Source: Candidatus Dojkabacteria bacterium
GTDB taxonomy: Bacteria; Patescibacteriota; Dojkabacteria; B142; JAFGFJ01
Assembly: GCA_016931155.1 (NCBI GenBank)
Contig: JAFGFJ010000002.1
Location: 385-64,384 of the forward strand
Reading direction: 5' to 3'
Length of the DNA: 64,000 bases
In this document: positions 45,630 to 64,000 of the stretch, piece after piece
How positions within the stretch are numbered: position 1 is the stretch's first letter
How the letters are laid out: each line of letters opens with the position of its first letter
Position numbers and translations under genes: made by a program
Notes under the pieces: generated by a model
What the model saw: the letters and a program-made list of their open reading frames with translations, nothing else
What the model was told of the DNA's origin: nothing
The model's database searches: none

Positions 45630-46841
45630 CTAAAACCCACTATCATCTTCACCGCCAAGCCTCCAATATGCAACACCTCCTATCCCGAACTCTGCAGCCA
45701 TTTCTCTCCTTGCTTTTACTCCGCTTCCACTCATATAAAAAATGATCCCTTGGGAACCATTTTTGTCATATTCAAGAATTACTTCTCCAAGCCCATCATC
45801 TTTGTACTCATTATAAGAGTAATTCTTTTTTATCTGAATAATATCGGAATATTCATGTGCATTGACCTGTATTTTCTCCTCCAGTGGATTTCCGAAAATA
45901 TCCAGATTGCGATTATATTTTTCATTTACCCACTCATATCCGTAAAGATGCACACCCAGAACAATTTTCCCACGAGGGATTTCATCCACAGCATATTGAA
46001 GAATTTCATACATCCACGAAATTGGACCGATAGGTCCCGGGTAGCGCGAATTTGTCGAAGTGTAATCGTAGGCCATGATTCTTATCTCATCAACATATTT
46101 GGAAAGTTCACGCCAGTTCTGCGCCTCACGTGTTTGCTTCAGAGAGGGATATTCTATTCCGTTCCCCCACTTTGACAAAACATCTATAGTAAGAATTTTA
46201 TTCCTTTTTTTAAGCTCACCGGAAAGCTCTTCTATAAATTTCAAAAACAGTTCTTTGTCAACAAGCTCAATAGACTCGTAATCAATATCAATCCCGTCAT
46301 AATCATTTTCATCAACCACTTTTAAAATACCTGTAATATGCCTCTGATAATTCTCTTCTGAATTCAGGACGGACTTAATAATGTTAAAGTCGAACATACC
46401 AATAGTAGGAATTAGATTTATATTGTTTTCTTTTACAAACTGTCCCAGCTTTGCGTGGGAGGCTCTTTTATGGCTTATGAGCGAACCATCAGCCTTGAGC
46501 GAATACCAGACAGGCGAAACCGAGTCAAACTTTTCTTTATTCTTGACAAGGCTTTCATAACCACGGTCAAAATCCCAGTAGGGAATCCAGGCCGACTGAC
46601 TGATCTCTTCTACACCTTTTGAATAATTCTGTTCTTCCCCCCTTCTATTTTCTTGTCCTTTTTCCTGTCCTATGTCATTTTCACCATCTCCTTCGATCAT
46701 GTCGGTTTGACCGGAATTCTCATTTTTTTGTGTAATTTGATAGACAGGATATTTCAAAAGAAAGAAATAAACAGCCAAAGCTGAAAGAACAATGAAGAAA
46801 ACAATGAAAAGGATAATAATTATTTTTTTCCTCAGTTTCAT
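45630..46841 (-). CDS. Membrane-anchored glycoside hydrolase family 18-like protein (chitinase/peptidoglycan-hydrolase-like TIM barrel)
   Basis: N-terminal TM anchor. DYDGIDIDYESIE matches the GH18 catalytic DGxDxDWE motif, with Tyr replacing Trp. Confidence 0.55.
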   Translation of the reverse strand: MKLRKKIIIILFIVFFIVLSALAVYFFLLKYPVYQITQKNENSGQTDMIEGDGENDIGQEKGQENRRGEEQNYSKGVEEISQSAWIPYWDFDRGYESLVKNKEKFDSVSPVWYSLKADGSLISHKRASHAKLGQFVKENNINLIPTIGMFDFNIIKSVLNSEENYQRHITGILKVVDENDYDGIDIDYESIELVDKELFLKFIEELSGELKKRNKILTIDVLSKWGNGIEYPSLKQTREAQNWRELSKYVDEIRIMAYDYTSTNSRYPGPIGPISWMYEILQYAVDEIPRGKIVLGVHLYGYEWVNEKYNRNLDIFGNPLEEKIQVNAHEYSDIIQIKKNYSYNEYKDDGLGEVILEYDKNGSQGIIFYMSGSGVKARREMAAEFGIGGVAYWRLGGEDDSGF

Positions 46842-46998
46842 TAAAATGAATTGAAGTAAATTTCTACAGATTATACCAGAATCTCTTGAAATCTCTGCGA
46901 GAACATCGTTGAAGCATTATTAATGACCGGAAAGCCTGCAGCAAGGAATATTTTTGATCCTGACCTCTTCGTGCTAATATTTACAGACAAATTCAATA

Positions 46999-47637
46999 AT
47001 GAAAAAGATTTATTTACTGACAATACTGATTTTTTCCGCTTTGCTTTTGTCCGCTTGTAAACCAAATTACCTTCAGGAGAACAATCAAAGTTCTAGCAGT
47101 GAAGAGCAGGGTAGTTCAAATATTAATTCAGAGGAAAACGCAATGAAAAATAATAAATACAGTGAGGCTCCCGAAGTACTGCCCGAGTCTGAGAGACTCA
47201 ATAAAAAAATCGTTATGAAAACAAATAAGGGAATAATTGAGATTGAGTTGTTCGGAGAAAAGGCTCCTCTTACTGTTAGCAACTTCATTTTTCTTGTAGA
47301 AGACAAATATTATGATGGTCTTACTTTTCACAGAGTTGATAAGAGTATCAATATTATCCAGGGTGGAGATCCTTTGGGGACTGGAGCGGGAGGCCCCGGT
47401 TACACAATCGCTGAAGAACCGCCTGCAAGTGGTGATGATTACAAAGAGGGGATAGTTGCTATGGCAAAGACATCGGCTCCACATTCAACCGGCTCGCAGT
47501 TTTTCATAATGACAGGGGATTTTGGTGGATTCAGTCCGGACTATTCAATTTTTGGAAAAGTCATCAGCGGAATAGATGTAGTAAAAAGCATTGGAGTAGG
47601 GGACGTAATGGATGAGGTTCGTGTTGAAAATTTGTAA
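46999..47637 (+). CDS. Cyclophilin-type peptidyl-prolyl cis-trans isomerase, probably a lipoprotein
   Basis: Lipobox-like LLLSAC. Cyclophilin motifs FHRVDKSINIIQGGDPLGTGAGGPGY and SQFFIMT. Confidence 0.85.
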   Translation: MKKIYLLTILIFSALLLSACKPNYLQENNQSSSSEEQGSSNINSEENAMKNNKYSEAPEVLPESERLNKKIVMKTNKGIIEIELFGEKAPLTVSNFIFLVEDKYYDGLTFHRVDKSINIIQGGDPLGTGAGGPGYTIAEEPPASGDDYKEGIVAMAKTSAPHSTGSQFFIMTGDFGGFSPDYSIFGKVISGIDVVKSIGVGDVMDEVRVENL

Positions 47638-48256: not shown

Positions 48257-51200
48257 TTGGGAATCCCGGGAGAAACACCACAGAAAAAAGAAAAAAAAGG
48301 AAAGAGGCAGAGTGCTTTCATGAGAGCGCTTAGCAGAATATTGAATATTTCCGCCGGAGAAACGAGAAAGACCAGAGAAGAGCTGGCAAAAGCTCTTACT
48401 GAGGGAAAAGACATAGAAAGAATCTATAAAGATAAACTAAAAGTCAAAGAAGCGGACAAAGGGAAAGAAAAACTCCCCCCAATCAGGGAAAGAATAAGGA
48501 AAGCCAGTGTTGATGCCGCAGTACGTCTGCTTCGAATAGATCCCAGACAAAAAATCGATGCTGTCAAATTCAAGGAGGAGATGGCCAGACAAAATATCGA
48601 CAGATCAACAGAGGGAGTACCTCAGGGAGCGTTTAGAAAAGCCCTCGCTGAAAAAGCACGGAAAACAGAGGCTGAAATCAGACAAGTAGAAAGAGCCGAG
48701 ATGGTTAAGGCCATAATAGTTAGAGAGAGCGGAAATGAAAAAGTCGACTTTGGAATAAGAGCAAACATTGAAGGTAGAAATATCGTAGTAAACCTCGATC
48801 AGAAGAAAGGAGATGATGAGCTTGATATAATAGAGAATGAGGAGAAAGAATACATCGATAAAAATCCAGATATTGAGAATAACGATAAAGAAGAAAGAAA
48901 GTCCAGGGTAAACAAAGAAATCGATCTTCTTAGAGAAATAAGGAAATTGAGGAAAGAAATAAAAAGCCCGGACAGCCGTGAAGTTGAAGCAATAATCGAA
49001 AAAGTTGAAGATTTTTTGAAGGAATCAAAGGAAGCGGGTCAAGAAACAGTGCTTCTCGAGGAGATGATAGATACTTTCGATCTTGATGAAATAACCAGAA
49101 AACAGGTGCATATTTCGGTTATTTCAAAAGTAGAGGGACTACAAAGAAATGCTTCTTCGAAAGAATACGAAAAAATACAGCGACAAACTGAACGCAAACC
49201 ACTTCACACACAACTTCTCGAACTATCCGCAGACAAGCTTGTTGCGAAACACAATCAAGCATGTAGCTTCTATATAGATGACTACGAAGATACATCAGCA
49301 GAAGGATCATCGAAAGCAGGGGAGGAAATAATTCCTGAGGAAAAGCGCAGGGAAAAGGACACAAAGCTTAGAGGAATTGTAAACACAGCTATCGACTCTT
49401 ACAATCAAACTCTACTTGAAGAAAATAACACTGGGAGAAAATTCGAACCTGCAGACCTTTATGAAAAAAATACAATCCTGCAGATCCCGGGCGGAGTAGC
49501 TATAGTTACATCTGATGCCGGGCAGTTTGCACGGCTGGTGAATATGGGTGAAGATCACGAGGCTATAGCAAAAAACCTTGAAGAACAACCGGTTGCGGGA
49601 GCCTATCTTAAAGGAAGGCTCGCAAACTCAATAAAAGAGAAAGGTTATGAAGGAGACGTGATCATAATCTACGCAAAAGAAGCTGAGGACGAGGATGGTG
49701 GAACGAAGGGTATAGAAAATAAATGGTATGAGCGGGACTTAAAAGACAGCGAAACCTCAAAACTTATATATCACGAAATAGAGCACTTGCTTCAGCAGAG
49801 AAATCTGGAAGCTATAGAAGACTTGCATTCGGGATCAGATGCAGTTTTGGAAGAATACTTTGAAAACAGCAATCAAGCAAGACACAAAAACCTCTTTGCA
49901 ATTTACAAAGACATAATAACGAACAGAAAGAATAGCAAATATTTCAAACAAGCACCTGATGATCCAATTTTTAAAATACTTGCGGAAGGGAATATAACAA
50001 AGGAGGCAGGGATACACCAGCTGGTATCGCTGTATTACGGCTCAAAAGGAATCGAGTTTGACGCTCTGACATCAGTAGAAAGACGTGGACGCATATTCGA
50101 GGAAGCTCCAGGCTGGAAAGGCGGAAAAATTGATGCAGGCAGGGTCTTTGAACTGGCCGCACTACCGGATAATCAAAGAAAAATCATGACACAGGAAGGT
50201 GAGACAAGTATTGAAGTTGACCCATGGGAGAATATAGCCAAAGAAAATCCATTACTACAAGCAGTATATTTCAGAGAAATCACTTCTGATAAAGCAAAAA
50301 TAATCTATAGTGATTTTGACAGTCCTGAAAAGCTTATGATGATCAAGGACGAGATTGATAGCTTGATGAAGACCAATAAACTTACTTCCATCTCACAGCT
50401 GATCCACAAAATCAGTGCCGGAGAAGTCACCCTCAGTGAAAACTCTGAACTCAATAAACTTGAGCTGATAAAAATGCTCAAGGTCAAAGGAAATGATCTT
50501 AAGTTTGTTAAGAGAGCCTCAGAAATTTTAGGCAGTTTCTTTAAAGATACTGAAACAAGGGACGCTCTATTTGAATACTCTGCAATACTGACCGGAGGAA
50601 AAATGGCCTTTGGAGAAGGGCTTATGAATCCCGAAGACCAACATAATCAACCGCTGATTGCTCTTTACAAAAGTGTTCTAGGCGAAAAAAGCAATGGTCC
50701 CGGGGATCTTAGCCTGAGAAGGCTTTACCTCCAGACACCCGAAGGAGAAATCCCGGAAGAGCATATAAAGCTTTTTAAATTTATGATTGCGGTAGATATG
50801 ATTCTACAGAGATCAGGAAATCTTAGTACTGAGGAATTAGACGCAAACAGAAGGCACATTGCATCCATGATTTACACTGATTACAACAAGGGGACAGATT
50901 ACCTTCTTCAAAGGCTCACAGACCTTACAGAATTGACTGGATCCCTCAGCAAAGAAGAGCTCAAAAAAATCGAAGAAGGCCTGCAAAGTATCATACAAAA
51001 TAAATCAAAGGCAGATCCCGGTTTTCTTAAAAAAATACTCTACGGGGATGAGACGAAATATCTAATACCATACAATCCCGATGTCGACTTTTCAGTTTTT
51101 CCGACCGAAAGGTACATAAAAGATATTTTGGGAGCAGGACATCCCGCCGCGGCTATTGACATAGTAGACGCTCTGCAGAGAGTATATGCCATGCCATTTG

Positions 51201-53149
51201 CCATGAAGAGGCACAGAGATATCCAAGCTCAAGTAGAGGAGCTTAGGGAGGCTCGTGCACCTGACTATCTCATAAAAGCTGTTCAGATGAGAAGTCCTTA
51301 CAACAGAGGTGGTGAGGAGTCGAGCATAGACTCCAACTGGTATCAAAAAATTGTCGAGACATTGCCACTTATAGGAGGACTTGTAACACCAGGCAATGTA
51401 GAGTGGGCAAAGTCGAGCCTTTTCACTGAAGGACATCCCTTGTACGGAAGAAGTATGAAAAGAGTTCCAATTATTGGGCCGATTCTTGACCGCCATTTTC
51501 CGGTAGTACTCAAAACTGGACTTGGAGGAGAGTTTGATGTCGCAAAAAGAGATTTTACAAAAAAATGGGGACATGACGTTAAGGGTTTGGCATTTCCTTC
51601 AGATCAGCTTATAACCGGCGATAAAAATGTAATGGGAATTATGAATGGAATACAGGCCGGCCTACAGGGACTCGGAATGGATGATCTCGAACGGATAGCC
51701 TTTTTGAAAGCAATGCCGATGTTTAGAACTATTCAAATGGGTGCTGCCAACCCACCTCAGATAATCCCTTCACAGGCAGAACTCGAGGAGGAAGGAGTTC
51801 AAATATGGGCAGACAGAACTGGTTCAGGTGCTGTCCACAAATGGAAAACTCACTTTGAAAATGAGATCGTATGGGGAAGTCACTGGGATGGCACAAAAGT
51901 AACAATTGATGATGAGATTGCGAAAGCTGAAAGTAAGCTTGCCAATATGAAAGGATTAGGCAAACTTGGTACAAAAGCTTTGTCCATCATGGACAAGATC
52001 AAAGGTCTGGACGGAGCACAAAAAGAAGCGACAAAAATGAAGGAAATATATAATCTCATGGCCGCACAGCCTCCCGGAGGATATTCAATGCGCCACCTGG
52101 TCGAGATGGCAAGAAAGGCTCATGAAGGCGGCTTCTGGGATCCGGATCCTGGTAAACCAAGAAAATACTATTTCAAAGTAGGCATACCAGATCCAAATAA
52201 CCCGGATGGGGAACCCATTTTGTTTGACTTGAAGGATGTGAACACATTTGTACAAAGATACAATAGAGCTTATGCAAAGGAAATATTTGCTTCAGGAAAA
52301 GATCCAAAAACAGGCGAAGACCTTGAAGCGGCAAGTCCGGATATCCAAAGTTTACGCGTGCAACTTGAAACTGCTGAGATGAATCGAGATAGAAATCAAG
52401 CTCAACTGAAAAACCCTGCGATTTCTGATAATGACAGGAAAAAGCTGGAGGATGAAATTGGTATCCTCGATTTCCACATTGAAAATTTCAAAAAAGAGAT
52501 TGAGGAAAAATCCCACACATATAAATTTCTCAAGGGATTCGGAGAAGGTTATGATGAAAAAATGTTTTTTGATATAGTATGGGGTGAAGTCGATGGCATG
52601 AAAGAGAATATGGAAAAGGGAGCACAATACTATGCCGATTATCAATTCAGAATTGCCCAGATTGCAATGATGGAAAGACGCACCTTTCATGCATCAAATT
52701 TCTTCAACAAACTAGATAGAATACTGAACAATATTGGTCACTGGAGTCTTGTAGCAGGACTTGCTATTACAGTTGCGACTGGAGCACCAGTTGGAATAAC
52801 AATACTGCTTGGCGGCTCTGCTCTGATACTCGCAAATACGGCATTTGTAAACAAATATTCTCAGCTCTGGCTCGGCAGAAGAATAAGAGCAATTGAAACC
52901 AGAGAAAAACTGGATTCTATGCTTCAAATGTACGAAGAAGTACAATCAGGAAAATTGCTCTCACCAGCAACTCTTTCTATGCTTGAAAGACAAAAGGCAA
53001 CTATTGAATTCATGACTGAAAATATCATGAGAGTAACAGCAAAGGATTCTGTGAAACTGCCTGCCGATAGATTATTCTTTGCTGTAGGTGGCGGTCTCTG
53101 GAAAGCATTTGATGAAATGGGAGTAAACATGCTTGCAGGAAAGATCTAA
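48257..53149 (+). CDS. Giant (1630 aa) Lys/Glu-rich, predominantly helical protein with a C-terminal Gly-zipper TM hairpin. No family recognised.
   Basis: One long ORF. No signal peptide. Highly charged N-terminal ~1500 aa. C-terminal hydrophobic segment HWSLVAGLAITVATGAPVGITILLGGSALILANTAFV followed by a ~90-aa tail. Confidence 0.6.
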   Translation: MGIPGETPQKKEKKGKRQSAFMRALSRILNISAGETRKTREELAKALTEGKDIERIYKDKLKVKEADKGKEKLPPIRERIRKASVDAAVRLLRIDPRQKIDAVKFKEEMARQNIDRSTEGVPQGAFRKALAEKARKTEAEIRQVERAEMVKAIIVRESGNEKVDFGIRANIEGRNIVVNLDQKKGDDELDIIENEEKEYIDKNPDIENNDKEERKSRVNKEIDLLREIRKLRKEIKSPDSREVEAIIEKVEDFLKESKEAGQETVLLEEMIDTFDLDEITRKQVHISVISKVEGLQRNASSKEYEKIQRQTERKPLHTQLLELSADKLVAKHNQACSFYIDDYEDTSAEGSSKAGEEIIPEEKRREKDTKLRGIVNTAIDSYNQTLLEENNTGRKFEPADLYEKNTILQIPGGVAIVTSDAGQFARLVNMGEDHEAIAKNLEEQPVAGAYLKGRLANSIKEKGYEGDVIIIYAKEAEDEDGGTKGIENKWYERDLKDSETSKLIYHEIEHLLQQRNLEAIEDLHSGSDAVLEEYFENSNQARHKNLFAIYKDIITNRKNSKYFKQAPDDPIFKILAEGNITKEAGIHQLVSLYYGSKGIEFDALTSVERRGRIFEEAPGWKGGKIDAGRVFELAALPDNQRKIMTQEGETSIEVDPWENIAKENPLLQAVYFREITSDKAKIIYSDFDSPEKLMMIKDEIDSLMKTNKLTSISQLIHKISAGEVTLSENSELNKLELIKMLKVKGNDLKFVKRASEILGSFFKDTETRDALFEYSAILTGGKMAFGEGLMNPEDQHNQPLIALYKSVLGEKSNGPGDLSLRRLYLQTPEGEIPEEHIKLFKFMIAVDMILQRSGNLSTEELDANRRHIASMIYTDYNKGTDYLLQRLTDLTELTGSLSKEELKKIEEGLQSIIQNKSKADPGFLKKILYGDETKYLIPYNPDVDFSVFPTERYIKDILGAGHPAAAIDIVDALQRVYAMPFAMKRHRDIQAQVEELREARAPDYLIKAVQMRSPYNRGGEESSIDSNWYQKIVETLPLIGGLVTPGNVEWAKSSLFTEGHPLYGRSMKRVPIIGPILDRHFPVVLKTGLGGEFDVAKRDFTKKWGHDVKGLAFPSDQLITGDKNVMGIMNGIQAGLQGLGMDDLERIAFLKAMPMFRTIQMGAANPPQIIPSQAELEEEGVQIWADRTGSGAVHKWKTHFENEIVWGSHWDGTKVTIDDEIAKAESKLANMKGLGKLGTKALSIMDKIKGLDGAQKEATKMKEIYNLMAAQPPGGYSMRHLVEMARKAHEGGFWDPDPGKPRKYYFKVGIPDPNNPDGEPILFDLKDVNTFVQRYNRAYAKEIFASGKDPKTGEDLEAASPDIQSLRVQLETAEMNRDRNQAQLKNPAISDNDRKKLEDEIGILDFHIENFKKEIEEKSHTYKFLKGFGEGYDEKMFFDIVWGEVDGMKENMEKGAQYYADYQFRIAQIAMMERRTFHASNFFNKLDRILNNIGHWSLVAGLAITVATGAPVGITILLGGSALILANTAFVNKYSQLWLGRRIRAIETREKLDSMLQMYEEVQSGKLLSPATLSMLERQKATIEFMTENIMRVTAKDSVKLPADRLFFAVGGGLWKAFDEMGVNMLAGKI

Positions 53150-53196
53150 TGAAATAAGAATATTAAAAATAAAGCATAAAAAAGTAAAAATTAGAA

Positions 53197-53682
53197 ATGG
53201 ATATCGTTTTTTTTGATGAAAAAATAGTCAGGATTTTCGGGAGGGCAATGGGTTTTGAAGGCCTGCAGCTTGAAGCCTTCGTAGCAGATTACAATCTAAA
53301 CCTTGTAAAGCTTTTTATACACAGTGCGCTTGAGCATATAGGGACTGATGCCGATCCGAAGGATATGAACGAGCTTCAAAGGATAGCTGACGATATTGCA
53401 GAGGAGAGAAGTGAGGATCTTACTGAGCTTGGAGAGTTCCTGGGTAAAAAGATGCTTGAGTATCCTGAAGCGGGAAAGAAAGTTGATCATGAAATTTCAG
53501 TTTTCAACGAAGGCATACTTGCAGACTTTATAGCTCACGCACCCGAAAAAAGCATTAAAGAGCTTTTGATATATATCGCAGAGACAAGAAAAAAGAACCA
53601 GAAAGTAGCAGAAATGATTGAAAAGATGAAGGCAGAGGCAAAAAGGGGAGGGCAGGAAAATGCTCAGGAGAAGACAAAATGA
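53197..53682 (+). CDS. Hypothetical small acidic helical protein, co-transcribed with the giant gene
   Basis: 161 aa, 47 nt downstream of the giant gene. No motif. Confidence 0.4.
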   Translation: MDIVFFDEKIVRIFGRAMGFEGLQLEAFVADYNLNLVKLFIHSALEHIGTDADPKDMNELQRIADDIAEERSEDLTELGEFLGKKMLEYPEAGKKVDHEISVFNEGILADFIAHAPEKSIKELLIYIAETRKKNQKVAEMIEKMKAEAKRGGQENAQEKTK

Positions 53683-54002: not shown

Positions 54003-54539
54003 CTAGGAAAATTTTTGTGCAGCTGACTGTGCAGAAGGTGGGGTAAGGTTGATCTTAGGGACAGTAACTGCATTTCCTGCATCTTCTCCAAAGACCTCAA
54101 CATAAGTTTTCATAAAATCCAGTACGGAATTTACAGAAGATTTCATTTCATTCACATAATCCTCAACCTTTTTCCGCTGATCTTCTTCCAGTTTTTTCAT
54201 GTATGATTCATAAATAAATTTGTTAAGCTCATTTATCAGATTCATAATTTTGTCTTGTAATTCTTTGGTTATATTTTGCTTTAACTCATCATCAACAGCA
54301 GAATCCATCGTCTCCTCAGCAGATTCATTATTTAGAATACTTTCGGACAGCTTAGCCTTTATCTTTGTTACCCAATCATTAGATAGTCCCTTTTCCCTGG
54401 CATAATTTTCAATAGCCTTTTCTACCAACACATCTGTCCTACCCATATAGTCATTATAAGCACTATCTTTTAGTTTGTCTTCAGAAAGACCCAAAAGCAT
54501 CCCTAGGATTTCTCTGTCAATAATATATCTATCCTTCAT
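54003..54539 (-). CDS. Hypothetical acidic helical protein
   Basis: 178 aa, last gene of a four-gene minus-strand operon (57665 to 54003). Confidence 0.4.
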   Translation of the reverse strand: MKDRYIIDREILGMLLGLSEDKLKDSAYNDYMGRTDVLVEKAIENYAREKGLSNDWVTKIKAKLSESILNNESAEETMDSAVDDELKQNITKELQDKIMNLINELNKFIYESYMKKLEEDQRKKVEDYVNEMKSSVNSVLDFMKTYVEVFGEDAGNAVTVPKINLTPPSAQSAAQKFS

Positions 54540-54552
54540 AATGATCGATTAA

Positions 54553-56733
54553 TTATGTTAGTTGTCCTATACCGTTCAGTGCATCAGTTAATTCTTTTGT
54601 TCCAGATATCCCAAACCTCTTTTCCCAGATTTTTACCACCTCTGGTATCATCTCAGGATCCAATCCATTTTTAGCAGCATATCTCTCAGCAAAGAATTTT
54701 GCTCTTTCTCCTGCTTGCGAAATTGGTATATTCTGTAACTCTGATTTAAATTTCAATATATCTCTTTCTTTTTCCAGATAATCAACTTTAACTTTTGCAT
54801 AATCCGCTTTACCACCAAAGCCAAGATATTTAATGCCAGCTACTCCACCACTTACAGCCCCCACACCTGCACCTACTCCAAGAACTCCTGTCAAAACAGG
54901 ACTTGCCGCTGTAAAGTATGCAATACCAGCACCAACACCACCACCCAATAGAAGCAAACTAGGGACACCAAAATACTTTGCAAGTGCCACAGCTCGCTTC
55001 ATTCGTAAATTGAATTTTTCTGCTTCAGCAGCTTTCACTCTTGCTTCTGCAATTTCCTCAGCAAGACCCCCACTACCGTTTGCTCCAAGCATCTTCTTTG
55101 TAAGTTCAAACTTTTTTTCCAGAGCTGCTTTCACTTCTGGTGAGCCCTGGTAGTTATCTATCTCCTCTTGCAGCTTTGAAACAACATCTGCCATATTCGC
55201 TTGCTGATCTTCTTCTGCCTGAATACTCATTTGAACAGCTTCTCCATGCTTATCTTTAATAAACTCTCTCTCTCTTTCAGTTAACGTAGGATATGCGGCA
55301 AGTTCATTGTCGATATTAAAAGTCCTGCCTACAGGAGTACATCCAGAATCAAACTTTCTCAATAACTCATCAATTATTTTCTTAATGCCTGCGTCTGTTT
55401 TGATTCTGGTCTCCTCCTCCTGGTACTTCTGTCTTGCCTGTCTTTTAAGCTCCTCTCCTTCCTGAAAAGATAATTCTCTATTCGTTACCCTTGTATCAAC
55501 TACAGTGTCATAAACGTCTAGTTCATAGAATCCTCTTCTTAGATACTCATTCATAGCAGCAGTAGTATCTCCCTTTCCTTCCTCTCTTCTTACTTTTTCC
55601 CTTTCTTCTCTCCCTGTAATTAAGGTTCTTCTTGCCGCAATTTCAGAGTTTAGTGCAGAAAATTCACTATCAGTAATATCCCTGTTTCCATGTGCAGTTA
55701 GCACCTCATCTTCTAACCTATTAAGCTCTTGTTCGTTGGAATTTGCCGGATCAGCCAATCCCTGTCTTATTCTTCGAGCCTCAGGAGATACTGTTGTCGC
55801 TCTTTCAGAATCTATCAGATCCACTATTCTCTTCCAGTCCGAGTCATTTATCTCACCATCTTTGAGAGCTCCATCAGCCCTCGATTTTGCAGTATCATAG
55901 TCAGGGTTTGGAACAAGTATAAATCCATTTATTATGCCATTTACAATATTTTTTCTTTGTGTATCAGCAAACTCTTTCTGCTTCCTTGTTTTTATACCCT
56001 CAACATCTTGCCTAGCCTGTCGAACTTGAGCTCTTTCTTCAGATATTACACTTTGATCAACGTATTGGTTTATAGCTGCTACTCTCTCTATTTCATCATC
56101 TGCACTGTCTAATATATCAAGAGCCGAGGTAACATCAACATTTGTAACAGGGATAATACTCTCAGCTGTTGATTTAGCTCTACTAACAAGATTACTTACA
56201 CTAGTCGGAAGCTTTGCTATCTCTTGATTCGCCTTTTCTTTTTTATCCTCTTCTTCCTTCCTTTGTTTCCTCTCATCTGCCTCCCTTTTCTCACTTGCAA
56301 TCTTAGCTCTAAGTTCTCTTATATCTTGATCTGCTTCGCTGAGCTTTTTTCCTCTACCTGTTTCCCCACTAATCATCTTATTCGCCGCATTAAACCTACT
56401 ATCATTATTTGTTTCTTGAAGCTTGTTTCCAACCTGAACTGATAAACTGTCAAAGGCGTTTTTTCTTTCCGTTCTAGCTTTCTCCTCAGCCTGTGATGCT
56501 CTTCTATCTGCGTCAAGCTGTTTCTTTCTACCTTCCTCCTCACTTTTCCTCTCTTTAGCAGCAGCTATAACACTAATTACTTCCTGAGCAGCTTCTGCTG
56601 TACCCGCTGCAATAGCTATTCTATATATAGACCTGTATTCAGTGGGTATCTTAGAAATCTCTGATCGCATTGCTGTCAACCGTTCTTGCGATAGAGGAGT
56701 AGAAGTTTTTGCTTGACTATCAGGATTACTCAT
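54553..56733 (-). CDS. 726-aa charged helical protein with a C-terminal Gly-zipper TM region
   Basis: Arg/Glu/Lys-rich N-terminal 550 aa. Hydrophobic region LLLLGGGVGAGIAYFTAASPVLTGVLGVGAGVGAVSGGVAGI followed by ~90 aa. Architecture parallels the 1630-aa and 1034-aa proteins. Confidence 0.55.
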   Translation of the reverse strand: MSNPDSQAKTSTPLSQERLTAMRSEISKIPTEYRSIYRIAIAAGTAEAAQEVISVIAAAKERKSEEEGRKKQLDADRRASQAEEKARTERKNAFDSLSVQVGNKLQETNNDSRFNAANKMISGETGRGKKLSEADQDIRELRAKIASEKREADERKQRKEEEDKKEKANQEIAKLPTSVSNLVSRAKSTAESIIPVTNVDVTSALDILDSADDEIERVAAINQYVDQSVISEERAQVRQARQDVEGIKTRKQKEFADTQRKNIVNGIINGFILVPNPDYDTAKSRADGALKDGEINDSDWKRIVDLIDSERATTVSPEARRIRQGLADPANSNEQELNRLEDEVLTAHGNRDITDSEFSALNSEIAARRTLITGREEREKVRREEGKGDTTAAMNEYLRRGFYELDVYDTVVDTRVTNRELSFQEGEELKRQARQKYQEEETRIKTDAGIKKIIDELLRKFDSGCTPVGRTFNIDNELAAYPTLTEREREFIKDKHGEAVQMSIQAEEDQQANMADVVSKLQEEIDNYQGSPEVKAALEKKFELTKKMLGANGSGGLAEEIAEARVKAAEAEKFNLRMKRAVALAKYFGVPSLLLLGGGVGAGIAYFTAASPVLTGVLGVGAGVGAVSGGVAGIKYLGFGGKADYAKVKVDYLEKERDILKFKSELQNIPISQAGERAKFFAERYAAKNGLDPEMIPEVVKIWEKRFGISGTKELTDALNGIGQLT

Positions 56734-57076
56734 TAGGTGGGTCTTCGCTAAAATGTTTCTTTATCTCTTCATTCATACTATTTTTAAGCTCCTCGTTAGT
56801 TGCAAGTTCACTGAAAGTTTTTTCTGTTACTTTTCCATTCTCCACACCTTCATCTAAACCTATTACAACATCCAAAATCTGCTTATCATCCAGACCTTTT
56901 CTCCTCAATTCTTCTACAAACCATTTCAAAAAATCATGGGACAGTTTCTTACCCTCAGTCAAAGCATTCTCCGGCTTAGTTACGTCTCCAATTTTCCCCT
57001 CAATTATTTGCTTCAATAAAGATGCTGGGTCAGAACTCTGTACAGTTTGTTTTGTTAGATTAGTCTGATTACCCAT
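56726..57076 (-). CDS. Hypothetical small acidic protein. Overlaps the downstream gene start by 8 nt.
   Basis: 116 aa. Translational coupling. Confidence 0.4.
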   Translation of the reverse strand: MGNQTNLTKQTVQSSDPASLLKQIIEGKIGDVTKPENALTEGKKLSHDFLKWFVEELRRKGLDDKQILDVVIGLDEGVENGKVTEKTFSELATNEELKNSMNEEIKKHFSEDPPNE

Positions 57077-57104
57077 CCTTTAAAATTTCTAGAAATATAC
57101 TAAT

Positions 57105-57665
57105 TCAACTCAATCCTTTCTCAAACTCTATAGTAGTCTGGATTATATTTCTGGCTTCGTCAAGACGCCCTTCTTTCAGGAGCTTACTCACCACTTTTTC
57201 AACTTCCTCCTTGACCCTCTTCTCATACTCAATCATAATTGGCACGACCACTTCAGAAAGCTCACGAAACTGATCATCAAGACTTGGGATCACTCTCATC
57301 AAACTCTCATATGAAATGTTTGAAGGAAGCTTCTGAAGCACCAGATCAGCAATCTTTTTCGCCCGCTCATCATCCATCTCGTCCTGCGACACCTTTTCCT
57401 TGATAAGATCGACAATGGACTGCATCACAACGTTTCGAACCTTGGCCGTATCCACTTCATCCTTGATAAGACCCGCTGGATCAAACTTCTCAAGTCTTTT
57501 TCCAAATTCCATCACCTTTTTCTGCTCGTCATTTTTTGCCACGTTAGAAGAATTTGCTGTATCTGCTTTTTGAGTATTTGTATTTGTATTTGTACTCGTA
57601 TTTGTACTCGTATTTGTACTCGTATTTGTACTTATATTTGTGTGTGCCACTTGTGCATCTGTCAT
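57105..57665 (-). CDS. Hypothetical protein with an N-terminal (TNTS)n tandem-repeat tract
   Basis: NISTNTSTNTSTNTSTNTNTNT, encoded by 12-nt tandem repeats at 57586-57645, then a helical acidic domain. Confidence 0.45.
   Translation of the reverse strand: MTDAQVAHTNISTNTSTNTSTNTSTNTNTNTQKADTANSSNVAKNDEQKKVMEFGKRLEKFDPAGLIKDEVDTAKVRNVVMQSIVDLIKEKVSQDEMDDERAKKIADLVLQKLPSNISYESLMRVIPSLDDQFRELSEVVVPIMIEYEKRVKEEVEKVVSKLLKEGRLDEARNIIQTTIEFEKGLS
57586..57645. repeat. Tandem 12-nt repeat (about five copies of GTATTTGTACTC) inside the 57105..57665 CDS
   Basis: gtatttgtactcgtatttgtactcgtatttgtactcgtatttgta... Confidence 0.85.
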
Positions 57666-57873: not shown

Positions 57874-59298
57874 GTGAAAAAAATCAGGAAAATTTTACTT
57901 GTCACAATAACTGTACTTCTCCTTTCAACTTCATCCTCAGTCCTTTTCCCTGCAAAAACCAAAGCGGATGGGCTCATGGATGCAGTATTTCTGGGAGGTG
58001 CTGAATCTATTTTCGGATGCAGAGAAGGGGAAAAGACAGCAGGTGAAGCATATGTTAAGTCATGCGGTAGCGGAAGCGTGCAGGGAGCAAGTGACTCAGA
58101 AAGCATAATGCGTGATCACGGGGCACTTGGTGTTACTGCAAATATGATAGATATGCTCTATGAGAATCCTCCAGCAAGCGGAATTGTCTATGCACAGCAA
58201 ACATGGGACAAATTCAGAACAAATGTCACTGGAGAAGTGTATGCTCAGGAAGTCTACTCACCTGGGGTCGGTTTCAGTCTTCTTCAGCCTGTTCAGCCTT
58301 ACTGGGCATGGGCTAGAAATATTTCGTACGGATTTTTCATACTTATTTTCATAGCAATTGCACTTCAAATACTTTTCAGGTCGAAAATCGACGGACAAAA
58401 TCCAGCAACACTGGCCAACTCAATACCAGGAGTCATAATTTCTCTTGCACTTGTCACTCTAAGCTATGCTATCACCGGCCTCACTATTGACCTAGTCACA
58501 ATAGGCTCAAACTTCATCAAAGGAATATACGAAACGAGCGGATTGATGGAAGACGGATCCAGGCTTCCAAACCCGGATGATCCGAGGATGAGTGTCTGGT
58601 TCGTTTTTTCGACCGCACTTGAAGGTAAAAGTGCAGGAGGTGAACTTAGTAACATAGCAAAAGGAATAAGCACAGAAGGAATTGCACTTGAGTCTGCTGC
58701 AAATCTTGCAAATGGAATTTTAGAAAACACCGCTGGTTCCTCCCTTATTTCCTTGATACTGGGAGTCACCATACTTTTTGCGGCTATGAAGCTGTTTTTT
58801 GAGCTCGTGAGAAGATATATTCAAATCATTCTAAACGTAGTACTTGCACCCATTTTGTTTCTTCTCGGAGCAATGCCGGGAGGTCTTCAAAAAGCGATAT
58901 TTCCTTTTATGAGAGGCTTTCTTGCAAATGCAACAGTTTTTATCGCAATATACGCCATCTTTGGTTTCATGGTAGTTCTACTAAAAGACCAGACCCACTT
59001 TACCACTGGAAATTATGGCTATGTTCCGCCCCTCATTGGTTTCCAAAGGGATGGAGACATGGGAGGTATTCCTTTTAATTCTATTAAAACACTCGTTGCT
59101 TTCAGTCTATTTATCACGACCACTTTGATTCCGGACATGATAGACAAAGCATTAGATGCCCCTGATTTTACACAAATTGTAAACAATCTGAGAGCAAGTA
59201 CAGCACAAGGAGCACAGCAGACTTCTGCTTTGCTCAAAGGCGTACTTGGAACTTTGGGTAATATCCAAGGTCTAACTGGAGGACAGGGACAAAGATAA
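57874..59298 (+). CDS. Polytopic membrane protein with an N-terminal signal peptide and about six TM helices. Topology resembles VirB6/TrbL.
   Basis: Signal MKKIRKILLVTITVLLLSTSSSVLFPAKTKA, a ~120-aa extracytoplasmic domain, then hydrophobic helices (ISYGFFILIFIAIALQILF, IPGVIISLALVTLSYAITGLTI, LISLILGVTILFAAMKLFF, IILNVVLAPILFLLGAM, ATVFIAIYAIFGFMVVLL, TLVAFSLFITTTLIP) and a Gly/Gln-rich tail. Confidence 0.45.
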   Translation: MKKIRKILLVTITVLLLSTSSSVLFPAKTKADGLMDAVFLGGAESIFGCREGEKTAGEAYVKSCGSGSVQGASDSESIMRDHGALGVTANMIDMLYENPPASGIVYAQQTWDKFRTNVTGEVYAQEVYSPGVGFSLLQPVQPYWAWARNISYGFFILIFIAIALQILFRSKIDGQNPATLANSIPGVIISLALVTLSYAITGLTIDLVTIGSNFIKGIYETSGLMEDGSRLPNPDDPRMSVWFVFSTALEGKSAGGELSNIAKGISTEGIALESAANLANGILENTAGSSLISLILGVTILFAAMKLFFELVRRYIQIILNVVLAPILFLLGAMPGGLQKAIFPFMRGFLANATVFIAIYAIFGFMVVLLKDQTHFTTGNYGYVPPLIGFQRDGDMGGIPFNSIKTLVAFSLFITTTLIPDMIDKALDAPDFTQIVNNLRASTAQGAQQTSALLKGVLGTLGNIQGLTGGQGQR

Positions 59299-59313: not shown

Positions 59314-60594
59314 ATGACGGATGAAACACCACTGAAAAAACTGGAAGAGCTCGAAAATGAAATAGAGAAAATTATTTCCCGGAAAGGGTTTGTTACTTTT
59401 GTTCATCTTAAAAAGCGCAAAAACATTAAATCTGTCTGGATAAAGGCGGTAAATTTTATAGACACAAAGTTAAAGAATTCTGAAAGTGATAAAGCTGCAT
59501 TCAATAAATATCTGACAGAGTTTCATGGTCTTGTCTCGAACATAAACGTTGCTGATGAATGGGTTCACTGGCAGGAAATTGAAGCTATTTACGAATCTTC
59601 CAAAAGAATAAGCCCGGAAAGCTCAGAATTCCTTCTCGCTCTTACAAAAGTACATCTTCTACGCAAAAAAAACGTACTGCCTGAACTGGGAGAGTATTCT
59701 CTCGTCAGCACCATTGAAATAGATACGCAAAGAATTAGAATTGCAAAAGGTCTTTCAATTATTAGTCCAAATGTATCTCTGATTCTGGATGGGAAAGATT
59801 TTCTACTTACCGATAAGGAAGGAAATTTTAATCTGACAACAACTCTGGGAATAGAAAAAAAAGAATGCAATATTGTTTCAACTCTTTCGACCCTGGCACA
59901 TATTCCTTCCCTTCAGGACACAATACTTGACGAAATACAGAATGTGTCAAAACATCCCTTCATATACGATCTTTATCCGGAAAAAGCAAAACGGGCACTT
60001 TGGGCAGCAACAAAACACCTCACACTTTTTGCAAGTAGATTTGCACACAACCAACTCAATAGAGGAATTGGATTGTCCGAAGCTGTCGAAAATACACAAG
60101 AATATATGAAATCTATACCAGACCTCGAGCCTGACATGTATCTGGAGATGAAAGAGTCCGGCTTGTGGGAAAGTATAAGACTGGGACTCATCAGTGAAGA
60201 AAAAATAGATCCAGTCGATGTAAAAATAATGTTTTCCGAGATTCTCGAAGCGATGGTATATCTTTGCAGATCAGCAGGCATCGTTCCTTCCAAATTCTTT
60301 GATATTGAATTTCGTGAGTCCTCAGATGAGGAAAAAAGCATTGAAGGAAATAAGTTCAGCATGGATGTTTTTGAGCTCGATGAGGGAGGGAAGAGATCGG
60401 ATTACATAATCGAAACCTACGCTGTTGTCCTTACACCCGAATCAGAAGTATCAATAGTAGATTCAGTCACAAACGGAAAGCTCAACACAGACTTTTATCC
60501 GAAATTCGACAACAGAAGTATTGCGGAAAAGATTGAAGATTATTTAACGGTGCCAGTAAATGAAAAAGAGGATTTTATAAATTATATAGAATAA
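59314..60594 (+). CDS. Hypothetical soluble 426-aa protein in the giant-protein cluster
   Basis: No TM helix and no NTP-binding motif. Follows the polytopic membrane protein by 15 nt and is followed by the next gene at +2 nt. Confidence 0.4.
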   Translation: MTDETPLKKLEELENEIEKIISRKGFVTFVHLKKRKNIKSVWIKAVNFIDTKLKNSESDKAAFNKYLTEFHGLVSNINVADEWVHWQEIEAIYESSKRISPESSEFLLALTKVHLLRKKNVLPELGEYSLVSTIEIDTQRIRIAKGLSIISPNVSLILDGKDFLLTDKEGNFNLTTTLGIEKKECNIVSTLSTLAHIPSLQDTILDEIQNVSKHPFIYDLYPEKAKRALWAATKHLTLFASRFAHNQLNRGIGLSEAVENTQEYMKSIPDLEPDMYLEMKESGLWESIRLGLISEEKIDPVDVKIMFSEILEAMVYLCRSAGIVPSKFFDIEFRESSDEEKSIEGNKFSMDVFELDEGGKRSDYIIETYAVVLTPESEVSIVDSVTNGKLNTDFYPKFDNRSIAEKIEDYLTVPVNEKEDFINYIE

Positions 60595-60595
60595 A

Positions 60596-63500
60596 ATGTC
60601 CGCTGGAAACGTCCCTATTGAGGGGGTTTTACCAAAACAGAAGACTGAGGAAGCTGGATCCGGAGTCAACGAATCTCCAAAAACTTTTGGACTGATCAAT
60701 AAAACACTTGAACGCTTTGGCATCACTATATCCATAGTAAACGACCCTAAAACCAGCGAACTTTATGAGTCAATGCTTATTGAAATTGAAAAACTTGGAT
60801 CTCAAGCAAACCCAAAGAGCATACTCAATATAATAGCAAGACATGCCTATTCGCTGGGGCTAAAAAAAGATGACTACACGAGACTTATACAGAAAATTAA
60901 ACTTACGAATGAAACAGACGCTCGCAATTTGCTTCCAATCCGAAAAAATGAAGACAGCACATTTGCTAACCTGAAAGAAACTCTGAACAGTTACAGAGTT
61001 TCCCACAAGCGAGTGATGGAGGAATATGTACAGCCCCTTGCGCAGTTGAAAGCAGTCAGACAGATGAAGGCAATGAAATTAAGATCAAGACGAAGAATGA
61101 GAGATAGCGAAAGTGCTTTTCTCAGAGGTACTGCTGCTTACCTGAACTTCCGGGAGCTTAGTGCAAAAGAACAGAAAAGAGTGGTAAAGGAGGGTGCTTT
61201 AAAGGCAGGAGGCAGGGCACTTGCAATTTATGATGATGCTTACAAATGGTTCTGGGATGATTCTGCATTTGGGAAAAAAATGCATGAAATCCGGCAGTCA
61301 AGCATAGATCTTGCGGAGAGGAAGAAAGCTGAGATCACTACACAAATCGGGGAAAAGCTTGATCCTATCAAGGCTCAAGCAAAACAGTTTATTGAAACAC
61401 AGAAAGCCGAAGTCAACAAAAAGCTAGCCCAGCCTGTAACGACAAAGTTAGAAGAGATTGACGCACCAAGGCGATTGTTTGTAAAGAAAGCCGGCACAAG
61501 ACTATTTGATCCTTCCTATTACAGAGAAAAATCATCCAGATGGGAAAAGATTTATCAGAAGACAGGCCAGAGACAAGCAGAATTGTTCGCCAGCAACGGT
61601 CTGGTCAGAAATCTAACTTCTGCCGAAAGGGAAGCAAGGGTTCGTATTTTGAACACACTCAGGAAGAGAAGGAAAAAAGGACTATTTGGGATAGCAACCA
61701 ATCTTCTAATGAAAGTGATGATGGAGCCGGTAAAGATTATTATGAAAACAGCCGGTCTTTCGGCAAAAGTTTCAGGATTTGCAACGAGAGTAAATGCTTT
61801 TTTGAAACCAAGAATAAGTGGTCTCACAAGAGGAGTATCAAAGATCACATCATCAACATTCGGTCTGTTAAAAAAATCCGTTGGTGTCACATCGAGTACA
61901 GTAAAAGCAATTGGGAATGCTGCTCTTCCTACACTATCCGTTTATCTTATTTCGGGAGGTTCCCTGCCTCTTGCAATTGCAACAGGAATAACTGTTACCG
62001 GTGCAAGCCTTACTGAAAAGCTTCTCTCTTCGCCAGATATTCTACCAAAATCCATTGTCAGTAAATTTGGGACTTTTGACGCAAAAGCAGCTCTCGCACT
62101 CAAGGAAATCCCGGATTTAAGCAAGATGAGTACAATGGAGCAGAATATTTTCAAACTAACCAAAGCGGCAGAACTCAAGGGAACACATGCACTGGCATCA
62201 ATGACAAAATCGATTACCACTGCGAGTAATGCGACTGCAGCACTTCTAGTTCTCTCATTTTTGGGATTTCCGATAACACCGGTACAGGCTCTCCTGGTAG
62301 GAGGAGGATCCGGTCTTGCTCACTTTGGTATCTCCAGACTCTACAATCAGGCTCTTACAAATGTAAAAACGAATTTGATGTTTGGCACACTCCGGCAATT
62401 CCCCGGTGGAGCAGTTGTAGGAATGTACATGGGAGGACAATGGATCAGATTTCAGGAAAGGAGACTAAGACAGCTTGGACTTAGTGATTATTTTACCCAG
62501 GAATGGCTGAATCTGAGGCTTGACGGCGGTCTTGGAAACATTATGTCCGGAGCGTCTTTTGGCTTGAGCACCTATCAGTTTGGTCAGTGGGCAAGCAAGA
62601 TGATTGGAAGCGGAGTTGCAAAAGCTACAGGTGTGAATTTTGCCAGGGCTGTCCCATATGTGACCGCCGGTACTATTTTCGGTACAGCCGCAGGCTTTCT
62701 TTTAGCACCACTTCTCGGTCTTACGCCGGGAATCGGAGCACTTATCGGAGGAGCAGTTGGTGGAGTAATTGGAGGAGCAGTTGGCATTGCTGTCGGAAAT
62801 CTGCCCGGAGGATTTTGGGGAAGTCTTACTGGATCAATCCTTGGTTCGACTGTAGGCGCATGGTTTGATACACAGCTCAATAAGATTGGGGCAAGCATTG
62901 CAAGCATGTTTCAGTTGTTCTCAATTCTTCGTTTTTTCGGTCTTATTGCCGGTTTCTTTACTTCACCATTAACCAAAATTAGCTCTCTCCTTGAAATTGT
63001 TATTGCATTTGTTATGGTTGCCGGAATAATTGGAACCTTTTCCGCCTTCGGTCTTAACTCAAGCTCCCTGAACACCCCAACTCAGAATCCAGGTAGTAAT
63101 TCACTAAACAGCTATCAGTCAGCACTGGCGAGTGCCTTTCCGGGAATAACACAAGATATTTTGATGCAAGAAAAAAAAGAAAAGCTGTATTTTTCATTTG
63201 ATGAAGAGCAACCTCAAGTGCAGGCATGTTTTCTTGACGACATAGAGTCGGAAGGATACTACGCTCTTGAAAAAGGTTATTACAATCCAATATGGAAAAA
63301 TTATGGAATATTATTTTTTGGAGAAGCAAAGCTGATAAAAAGTCCAATAGAAGGGATTGTAGTCTATTCAGGTAAAAACAACATCTACAAGAGGGACAAA
63401 AATGGAGATTTCTCAAAAAGTGAAGAAAATACTCTAATAATAACCCAATTGCCGGAGCAAACATATTTCATTGCATTTGATGGGATTGATACCGAGCTTA

Positions 63501-63700
63501 AATCAGAAAATAGAATTAAAAGTGGACAATTACTTGGAACGAGTTCACAAAATTTCAGAGTATCTGTATTTAATTATGCTCAAAACTACAGACCATATAA
63601 CCCCAGAAATGCAACTAATCCTTGCGAACCACTTGATGAAGTGGGTTTTCCGGGATTTGCATGTAATATAATCCCATCGTTCGTTGAAAAGTGTAAATAA
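60596..63700 (+). CDS. Large (1034 aa) protein: charged helical N-terminal half, extensive Gly-zipper polytopic region, and a C-terminal ~200-aa Cys-containing globular domain of unknown function
   Basis: GxxxG-rich hydrophobic stretch GTAAGFLLAPLLGLTPGIGALIGGAVGGVIGGAVGIAVGNLPGGFWGSLTGSILGSTVGAWF plus further helices. The C-terminal domain contains QACFLDD, NPCEPLD and GFACNII. Confidence 0.55.
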   Translation: MSAGNVPIEGVLPKQKTEEAGSGVNESPKTFGLINKTLERFGITISIVNDPKTSELYESMLIEIEKLGSQANPKSILNIIARHAYSLGLKKDDYTRLIQKIKLTNETDARNLLPIRKNEDSTFANLKETLNSYRVSHKRVMEEYVQPLAQLKAVRQMKAMKLRSRRRMRDSESAFLRGTAAYLNFRELSAKEQKRVVKEGALKAGGRALAIYDDAYKWFWDDSAFGKKMHEIRQSSIDLAERKKAEITTQIGEKLDPIKAQAKQFIETQKAEVNKKLAQPVTTKLEEIDAPRRLFVKKAGTRLFDPSYYREKSSRWEKIYQKTGQRQAELFASNGLVRNLTSAEREARVRILNTLRKRRKKGLFGIATNLLMKVMMEPVKIIMKTAGLSAKVSGFATRVNAFLKPRISGLTRGVSKITSSTFGLLKKSVGVTSSTVKAIGNAALPTLSVYLISGGSLPLAIATGITVTGASLTEKLLSSPDILPKSIVSKFGTFDAKAALALKEIPDLSKMSTMEQNIFKLTKAAELKGTHALASMTKSITTASNATAALLVLSFLGFPITPVQALLVGGGSGLAHFGISRLYNQALTNVKTNLMFGTLRQFPGGAVVGMYMGGQWIRFQERRLRQLGLSDYFTQEWLNLRLDGGLGNIMSGASFGLSTYQFGQWASKMIGSGVAKATGVNFARAVPYVTAGTIFGTAAGFLLAPLLGLTPGIGALIGGAVGGVIGGAVGIAVGNLPGGFWGSLTGSILGSTVGAWFDTQLNKIGASIASMFQLFSILRFFGLIAGFFTSPLTKISSLLEIVIAFVMVAGIIGTFSAFGLNSSSLNTPTQNPGSNSLNSYQSALASAFPGITQDILMQEKKEKLYFSFDEEQPQVQACFLDDIESEGYYALEKGYYNPIWKNYGILFFGEAKLIKSPIEGIVVYSGKNNIYKRDKNGDFSKSEENTLIITQLPEQTYFIAFDGIDTELKSENRIKSGQLLGTSSQNFRVSVFNYAQNYRPYNPRNATNPCEPLDEVGFPGFACNIIPSFVEKCK

Positions 63701-63707
63701 AAACATT

Positions 63708-64000
63708 ATGAAAACTAGACCTCAAAAATTTTTAACTATTCCTATTCTTTTTCTGGTCATCGGTTTTGCAATTTTTATATTTGTCAAAAGTAATAAGCCT
63801 GGACAGCCCAGTGTAAATACAAACAGCACAACAACAGAATCTCTTTCCATAGAACAACCCTTTGACTTCGAAAACAAACAAACCGGCGTTGAATTCAAAA
63901 ACTTGATTCCAAATAATAGTGTCTCAAAACAATTCTCACTTTATGAAGTTGACCCTTATCAGGAGTATTTCCCCTCGGCAAAGCTTGCAAAAGATATAGG
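63708..64000 (+). CDS. 3'-partial gene for a secreted/membrane-anchored protein that continues the cluster beyond the window
   Basis: ATG at 63708. Frame open to the window end. N-terminal anchor MKTRPQKFLTIPILFLVIGFAIFIFV. Confidence 0.5.
   Translation, partial: MKTRPQKFLTIPILFLVIGFAIFIFVKSNKPGQPSVNTNSTTTESLSIEQPFDFENKQTGVEFKNLIPNNSVSKQFSLYEVDPYQEYFPSAKLAKDI

Follow-up and report, generated by a model that had tools for sequence, protein, structure and literature searches.

A degenerate LytM domain at the predicted outer end of a many-pass membrane protein in a conserved, unannotated gene cluster of Dojkabacteria-like Patescibacteria

Within a 64,000-nt stretch of contig JAFGFJ010000002.1 from a Candidatus Dojkabacteria bacterium (hereafter the window), we analysed a protein of 1034 amino acids (aa) that an earlier note, made from the letters of the sequence, had likened to the wall-breaching components of conjugation systems and phages. 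We conclude that it is a many-pass membrane protein with an inactive LytM (peptidase M23 fold) domain, devoid of a zinc site, at its predicted outer end. In outline its layout has the three parts seen in the earlier note: the N-terminal region is basic, aa 434-820 are hydrophobic, and the C-terminal domain contains four Cys residues that are invariant. These structural statements, namely the architecture, the degenerate LytM (dLytM) fold, the invariant Cys residues and the conserved operon in which the gene lies, are held with high confidence. With regard to function, we favour with moderate confidence the reading that the protein belongs, as a polytopic subunit in the cytoplasmic membrane, to an as yet undescribed envelope complex conserved in Dojkabacteria-like Patescibacteria, with the dLytM domain acting as a non-catalytic binder. 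On this reading the protein looks like a wall-contacting subunit, not a wall-cutting enzyme.

The C-terminal domain (aa 878-1034) contains all of the Cys residues in the protein, of which there are exactly four, at positions 878, 1010, 1023 and 1033, in agreement with the number given in the earlier note. All four are invariant in 3/3 orthologues, and the domain ends in a conserved tail (PC...F.GF.C[DN]II..F...C). Profile searches detected the Pfam family Peptidase_M23 (PF01551) only below threshold, at aa 903-986 (E 0.22, with 12.2 bits where the gathering cut-off is 28.7), and PDB sequence searches with the domain, as a single sequence and as a profile, were uninformative. The fold was recognised through structure prediction followed by a Foldseek search, the course that the earlier note had proposed. 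A first AlphaFold2 (AF2) model of aa 825-1034, built on a three-sequence alignment, displayed a beta core with a predicted local distance difference test score (pLDDT) of 63-90, and a second model covering aa 336-1034 recovered the same core at pLDDT 70-86. The LytM beta-sandwich fold is present in this domain. When the second model was compared to the PDB with Foldseek, the only match below 1e-3 was the degenerate LytM domain of PrgK (8s0u, E 1e-4), whilst a structural search of BFVD matched 47 phage M23 proteins, tape-measure proteins among them. The LytM fold was the only one seen in the modelled C-terminal region, and no glycosidase (SLT/MUR) or CHAP domain was found there with Pfam.

All M23 peptidases require the zinc ligands of the HxxxD and HxH motifs. 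None of these zinc and catalytic ligands was found in the C-terminal domain: there is no His in the last 209 residues of the protein (from N826), the C-terminal ~205-210 residues of the two orthologues P0002 and P0001 hold 0 and 1, respectively, and in place of HxxxD and HxH the aligned stretches are KNYGILF and NFRVSVF. Because an M23/LytM fold is here combined with the loss of zinc and catalytic ligands, aa 878-1034 as modelled are a dLytM domain. The earlier note had correctly reported that no HxxxD or HxH motif is present; the domain nonetheless has the fold of the hydrolases to which those motifs belong, and the enzymatic 'effector' role proposed for it is not supported, because all of the zinc and catalytic ligands are missing. 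An active peptidoglycan hydrolase with a non-canonical active site would rescue the idea of a wall-breaching effector, and could draw on the M23 fold itself and on three polar residues that are invariant in the three orthologues and lie close to the lost motif positions (K901, E944 and R988). We consider this highly improbable, given the His count above and the fact that every characterised LytM domain without metal ligands is inactive (bioRxiv 10.1101/2024.02.15.580431). Characterised degenerate LytM domains, that of PrgK included, are instead non-catalytic binders or regulators (bioRxiv 10.1101/2024.02.15.580431), and PrgK offers a precedent for a regulatory, non-catalytic LytM domain (bioRxiv 10.1101/2024.02.15.580431; PMC12857230). 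The residues K901, E944 and R988 are candidates for a binding groove.

The ORF (open reading frame) is genuine, as the earlier note had held. Its stop codon falls within the coordinates, its start ATG is one base past the stop codon of the upstream gene, and the N-terminus (MSAG...) is common to the protein and its closest orthologue, P0001. An identical protein is present in GenBank as MBN1915489.1, from a metagenome-assembled genome of a Candidatus Dojkabacteria bacterium, on a 65.5-kb contig. An exhaustive phmmer search of 1.84 billion representative proteins returned only ten matches, marking the family as very sparse. Two of these are full-length orthologues, P0001 (1047 aa) and P0002 (1340 aa), with identity of ~30%, and both bear out the ORF. 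A further seven have only the membrane core (~aa 553-830) in common with the query and differ at their N- and C-termini, and the remaining one, P0008, appears tape-measure-like by eye and has the zipper alone in common. Three word-indexed homology searches returned no relatives, because the 1034-aa protein falls in a 90% cluster whose representative is an unrelated fragment of 52 aa with the name 'tRNA pseudouridine13 synthase', and because the zipper saturates the word candidates. Back-translated pattern scans of genome, metagenome and viral contigs likewise gave no confirmed relative.

The C-termini of the more distant family members showed features of their own. P0003, P0004, P0005 and P0010 each have exactly two Cys residues, which bracket a short C-terminal domain of ~65 residues (DCL...G.C) in which a 'V..G..[IL]G' motif occurs, as is usual for the M23/barrel-sandwich hybrid; these short C-termini look like a minimal remnant of a LytM domain. 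In P0006 a different domain of ~240 aa stands in place of the LytM-type C-terminus, with three Cys residues and a ..ATHVGILASIDKDYLKVYEAN.. stretch. By eye it recalls CHAP/NlpC-P60 enzymes (..ATHVGI...YEAN..), for which Pfam and PDB sequence searches gave no support.

The N-terminal region (aa 1-433) is strongly basic, contains zero Cys residues and displays a motif conserved with P0001 at aa 166-257 (YLNFR[ED]LS...RALAI...Y.WFWD). The coiled coil that the earlier note had placed here did not hold up, as no window of aa 1-440 rose above threshold in a crude heptad scan, which was no better than for shuffled sequences, and only aa 342-385 of the region were modelled as helix by AF2, at low confidence. 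Downstream, family-averaged hydropathy revealed two blocks of 42-44 residues (aa 434-477 and 539-580), each with a conserved central G-x-(x)-P turn and each consistent with a helical hairpin, followed by aa 685-757 (three helices, zipper) and by aa 766-788 and 796-820. The proposed inner segments have net charges of +38, +3, +7 and +1, against -3 for the outer linker and -3 for the outer domain, and wherever a family member contains Cys at all, its Cys residues lie without exception downstream of the last hydrophobic helix. From these features we infer an N-terminus in the cytoplasm and nine membrane helices, which would place the C-terminus outside. An outside location of the LytM domain is further favoured by the N/S/T/P-rich linker and the nature of LytM domains. 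The order of cytoplasmic region, membrane region and extracytoplasmic domain given in the earlier note fits the charge distribution, the Cys restriction and the domain fold.

Foldseek matches of the membrane part to MFS and Amt transporters (probability <0.35) were discarded because this part was modelled at pLDDT 30-40. The GenBank name of MBN1915489.1 likewise makes the protein a transporter, of the drug/metabolite transporter (DMT; EamA) family. It shares with such a transporter its polytopic nature, but sequence profiles refute the name, since neither Pfam, at E up to 10, nor NCBIfam, at E up to 1, gave an EamA/DMT match, and the 433-aa N-terminal region, the zipper and the LytM domain are unlike the two-repeat DMT fold of 10 transmembrane (TM) helices. 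We give this assignment practically no credence, and the misleading public annotation "DMT family transporter" can be corrected.

The glycine zipper within the membrane region shows periodic Gly residues beyond what composition explains. The whole protein contains 22 GxxxG motifs compared to 8.5 +/- 2.6 in shuffles; 15/22 are located within aa 685-757, a count that 0/5000 same-composition shuffles of this 73-residue segment reached. The zipper is therefore real, and the string quoted for it in the earlier note is present, although it spans ~70 residues inside the wider hydrophobic region rather than the ~350 that had been described. The channel-like role that the earlier note gave to the Gly-rich region is putative, the AF2 model of that part being unreliable. 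It is the best-conserved stretch across all ten family members, and the Pfam model Gly-zipper_Omp matched it below threshold (16.6 versus 25 bits).

The zipper also bears on whether the protein could stem from a prophage or tailocin, as a tape-measure protein of the T5 Pb2 type that ends in an M23 domain. A weak PHROG match to the tape-measure family phrog_167 (E 1e-4) falls over the zipper, and the tape-measure proteins in the BFVD result and the appearance of P0008 point the same way, as do structural matches to tape-measure or ejection proteins of phages in which the M23 domain is C-terminal, such as the cyanophage A4 internal protein 9k2v_E. The sequence similarity is nevertheless restricted to the low-complexity zipper, and no other phage structural match was found with PHROG in the cluster. 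Searches with the 1034-aa protein against 50,697 phage genomes (tblastn) and IMG/VR gave no match, and the position of the gene beside housekeeping genes is conserved in distant lineages. Moreover, phage M23 versions normally retain their catalytic ligands and sit in tail modules, whereas the domain described here is degenerate, chromosomal and free of phage neighbours. The tape-measure explanation is largely refuted, and only a slight residual chance attaches to it.

Four genes are closely packed here, with gaps of 15, 1 and 7 nt. The first encodes a polytopic protein of 474 aa with a signal peptide, the second a soluble protein of 426 aa, the third the 1034-aa protein and the fourth a 306-aa protein with one N-terminal TM helix. 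The third gene is translationally coupled in an operon with genes for a secreted polytopic, a soluble and a bitopic protein. Upstream is a divergent block of four genes, whose 726-aa product combines a long charged region with a Gly-rich TM hairpin, and further upstream are the genes for a giant 1630-aa protein and a 161-aa protein, which match a 'giant + ~150 aa' slot preceding the polytopic gene in the related loci L005, L008, L010 and L011. Synteny of the module extends to at least eight further loci, from related ultrasmall bacteria. The order including the divergent block is also kept in L002 and L003, and the order giant, ~150 aa, polytopic, ~390 aa and family member is found in L004, L005/6/7, L008, L010 and L011/12. 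The 426-aa protein is conserved in at least four related loci (L002-L005), with a same-sized syntenic gene in L008, L010 and L011, and pairwise homology across loci was confirmed for the 474-, 426-, 306-, 186-, 116- and 178-aa proteins. The remaining genes in the window have housekeeping functions (TruB, FtsW, Pth, UvrA, AspRS/AsnRS-type, GlmS and BipA), and the window is accordingly chromosomal DNA. Housekeeping genes (AlaRS, MurB, GreA and SBP/DUF3048) also flank the module in distant loci, which points to a vertically inherited module of the chromosome, not to a mobile element. Neither the window nor the 10-kb flanks of related loci showed an ATPase, a type IV secretion system (T4SS) signature gene or a phage gene. 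The 474-aa protein had no Pfam, NCBIfam, PDB or plasmid match, and PDB sequence searches with the 474-aa and 426-aa families were uninformative.

The conservation of gene order in L002, L003, L004, L005/6/7, L008, L010 and L011/12 is the reason for which we assign the protein to a complex. We envisage that the N-terminus would lie in the cytoplasm, that the two G-x-P hairpins would dip into the membrane and return, and that five further helices would carry the chain out to a LytM domain stapled by disulfides on the outside. Within the membrane, the glycine zipper may drive tight helix packing and probably oligomerisation. The outer dLytM domain, unable to cut peptidoglycan, would hold peptidoglycan and/or dock and control a separate hydrolase or a partner ectodomain, and this binding could either fix the complex in the wall or open, or license, wall remodelling locally around it. 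Such a mode of action is modelled by analogy on EnvC, NlpD, DipM and the LytM domain of PrgK. Several points weigh against this reading. None of the neighbouring genes has a significant Pfam, NCBIfam or PHROG assignment or a recognisable domain, and no partner hydrolase was identified within the cluster. The topology, including the extracytoplasmic location of the C-terminal domain, is based on observed hydropathy, charge bias and Cys distribution rather than on a dedicated predictor; in the AF2 model of aa 336-1034 the membrane part is unreliable, at pLDDT 30-40; and the LytM model derives from three sequences only, with a mean pLDDT of 57 in the first model. Peptidoglycan binding and oligomerisation through the zipper are both putative.

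By LytM fold, the closest known protein is PrgK, the VirB1-like protein (DELTA class) of the Enterococcus faecalis pCF10 T4SS, and the main rival explanation follows from it, namely that the 1034-aa protein is a VirB1/PrgK-equivalent subunit that opens or regulates the wall for a highly diverged Patescibacteria T4SS. The 474-aa protein would then be the missing VirB6-like subunit and the 306-aa protein a VirB8-like one, encoded away from virB4. In addition to the Foldseek match, PrgK likewise has an intracellular N-terminal domain, is anchored in the membrane by a TM helix, and carries on the outside a degenerate LytM domain that regulates its muramidase (bioRxiv 10.1101/2024.02.15.580431). 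The pCF10 order PrgH (polytopic) ... PrgK - PrgL (bitopic) also resembles that of the 474-, 426-, 1034- and 306-aa proteins. PMC12102498 reports that some classes of Patescibacteria have few or no VirB6 homologues, 'suggesting extreme sequence divergence', that their T4SS parts frequently lie away from virB4, and that some VirB1 homologues carry Peptidase_M23; Dojkabacteria are listed among the T4SS-bearing lineages in the preprint version of the same work.

Set against these points, VirB4, VirD4, VirB3 and pilin genes were found neither in the window nor, across six related loci, within 10 kb, and NCBIfam and Pfam T4SS models were silent other than a trace of conj_pls20_p028 at E 0.48. Alignments to pCF10 PrgK, PrgH, PrgL and PrgJ with hhalign were negative, at probabilities of <1%; that to PrgK reached 0.75%, with only a 25-residue G..V..G..G LytM motif aligned. 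The 474-aa protein had no tblastn match in 72,556 plasmids. PrgK further differs in having one TM helix and an active muramidase and CHAP domain after its LytM domain (bioRxiv 10.1101/2024.02.15.580431), whereas the 1034-aa protein has ~9 hydrophobic helices, a glycine zipper and nothing beyond the LytM domain, glycosidase and CHAP domains both being missing from it, and its gene is chromosomal rather than carried on a mobile element, with no VirB4 neighbour. The resemblance to Gram-positive conjugation and tape-measure components noted earlier is therefore sound at the level of the domain (PrgK 8s0u, phage M23 proteins) and does not extend to accompanying T4SS or phage genes or to hhalign comparison. 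We judge the T4SS explanation unlikely.

Other dLytM factors provide further parallels. EnvC, NlpD and DipM carry coiled-coil or LysM domains and are lipoproteins or soluble proteins of the periplasm, whereas the dLytM domain described here is fused to a large polytopic membrane protein, has four Cys residues and lacks a known amidase partner. SpoIIQ of Bacillus sporulation, to which SpoIVFA may be added as a parallel, is anchored by one TM helix and is without a large cytoplasmic domain. Somewhat more doubtful than a T4SS role is a SpoIIQ-like one, in which the dLytM domain would be a docking module for a protein on another membrane or surface, for example that of an epibiont's host, as part of a cell-to-cell conduit. 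Cultivated Patescibacteria are obligate epibionts, and among the products of the cluster are a secreted polytopic protein and several large proteins anchored in the membrane. No SpoIIIAH/YscJ-type ring-forming partner or other SpoIIIA-like protein was detected by Pfam or NCBIfam, however, and no observation made here bears on host contact.

A broader form of the envelope-complex reading, which we put forward only tentatively, is that the cluster from ~48.3 kb to past the window end encodes an unrecognised, Patescibacteria-specific trans-envelope machine, unrelated to T4SS, type IV pili or any known secretion system. Its parts would be a giant protein with a HEIxH motif, small helical proteins, giants anchored by Gly hairpins, and the secreted polytopic, 426-aa, dLytM and bitopic proteins, giving a very large cytoplasmic mass with small wall-facing parts, of which the 1034-aa protein would be the wall-anchoring or wall-gating subunit. 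If so, the machine could serve host interaction or envelope growth in epibionts, and the whole cluster could outweigh the single protein in interest. Patescibacteria account for a large share of bacterial diversity and most of their envelope biology is unknown. Membrane-anchored degenerate LytM factors are known as such; what is new is the variant architecture seen here and its occurrence in a conserved dark cluster. The wall-facing dLytM domain is the first structural handle on this chromosomal, conserved and entirely unannotated cluster of 7-10 genes, and should the cluster prove to be a dedicated envelope complex, it would mark the point of wall contact and supply a soluble, expressible bait for partners.

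Table 1. Coordinates of the 1034-aa protein, its segments and associated genes; positions refer to the window unless a related locus is named
Feature	Position	Strand	Remarks
ORF of 1034 aa	60596..63700	+	MBN1915489.1; orthologues P0001 (E 4e-79), P0002 (E 2e-41)
aa 1-433, basic Cys-free N-terminal region, putatively cytoplasmic	60596..61894	+	84 K+R, 46 D+E
aa 434-477, hydrophobic block of 44 residues with central G-x-x-P turn, putative helical hairpin A	61895..62026	+	family-conserved
aa 539-580, conserved hydrophobic block with central G-x-P turn, putative helical hairpin B	62210..62335	+	
aa 581-684, basic loop, net +7, putatively cytoplasmic	62336..62647	+	family motif P603...G.Y.G..W...Q.R...Y..[DE][EQ]WL
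aa 685-757, glycine zipper, ~3 hydrophobic helices	62648..62866	+	27% Gly, 15 GxxxG
aa 766-820, last two predicted TM helices	62891..63055	+	
aa 821-877, N/S/T/P-rich acidic linker, putatively extracytoplasmic	63056..63226	+	pLDDT <50 in both AF2 models
aa 878-1034, degenerate LytM (peptidase M23 fold) domain, as modelled	63227..63697	+	four invariant Cys, no His
474-aa polytopic membrane protein with N-terminal signal peptide	57874..59298	+	best-conserved gene, 32-55% identity in five loci
426-aa soluble protein, no Walker motif by eye	59314..60594	+	operon partner
306-aa protein with one N-terminal TM helix, cut by window end	63708..64000	+	full gene from L001 6106-7026
Divergent block of four syntenic genes (186, 116, 726 and 178 aa)	54003..57665	-	
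186-aa protein of the divergent block	57105..57665	-	
726-aa protein of the divergent block	54553..56733	-	
Giant 1630-aa protein and 161-aa protein	48257..53682	+	giant: HEIEH at aa 506, C-terminal Gly-rich TM hairpin
Giant 1630-aa protein	48257..53149	+	
Giant protein of L008	L008 1..5457		HEISH at aa 516
Giant protein of L010	L010 371..5527		HEIRH at aa 593
Family member P0006	L005 10001..12781		
Convergent He_PIG protein	L004 13276..15531, L005 13474..15390, L008 12808..15135, L011 13755..15710	-	
GH18 family glycosidase (403 aa, -) and cyclophilin-type isomerase	45630..47637		

Several minor features of the surrounding genes were also noted. HEIxH motifs are present at similar positions in the syntenic giants of the window, L008 and L010, which display no BLAST similarity to each other, and the L005 giant is without one; the motif may represent a cytoplasmic zincin-like site. 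The 726-aa and 1630-aa proteins each end in a Gly-rich hydrophobic hairpin with a central Pro (e.g. GGGVGAGIAYFTAASPVLTGVLGVGAGVGAVSGGVAG), built in the manner of hairpins A and B in the 1034-aa protein; such hairpins may be a membrane-anchoring device common to the cluster proteins. The 186-aa protein opens with a (TNTS)n low-complexity run, aside from which it is the most conserved in the cluster (80% identity to L002, 64% to L003); together with the 161- and 178-aa proteins it is apparently a small acidic protein, helical by eye only. In several distant loci a convergent gene comes after the family gene and encodes a protein of 640-775 aa that has Ig-like (He_PIG) domains; BLAST shows its copies from L004, L005 and L008 to be mutually homologous. 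In L004, L005 and L011/L012 the convergent gene is followed by an SBP_bac_1 gene and a DUF3048 gene. Just upstream of the cluster, the window encodes a GH18 family glycosidase and a cyclophilin-type isomerase with a lipoprotein-like N-terminus.

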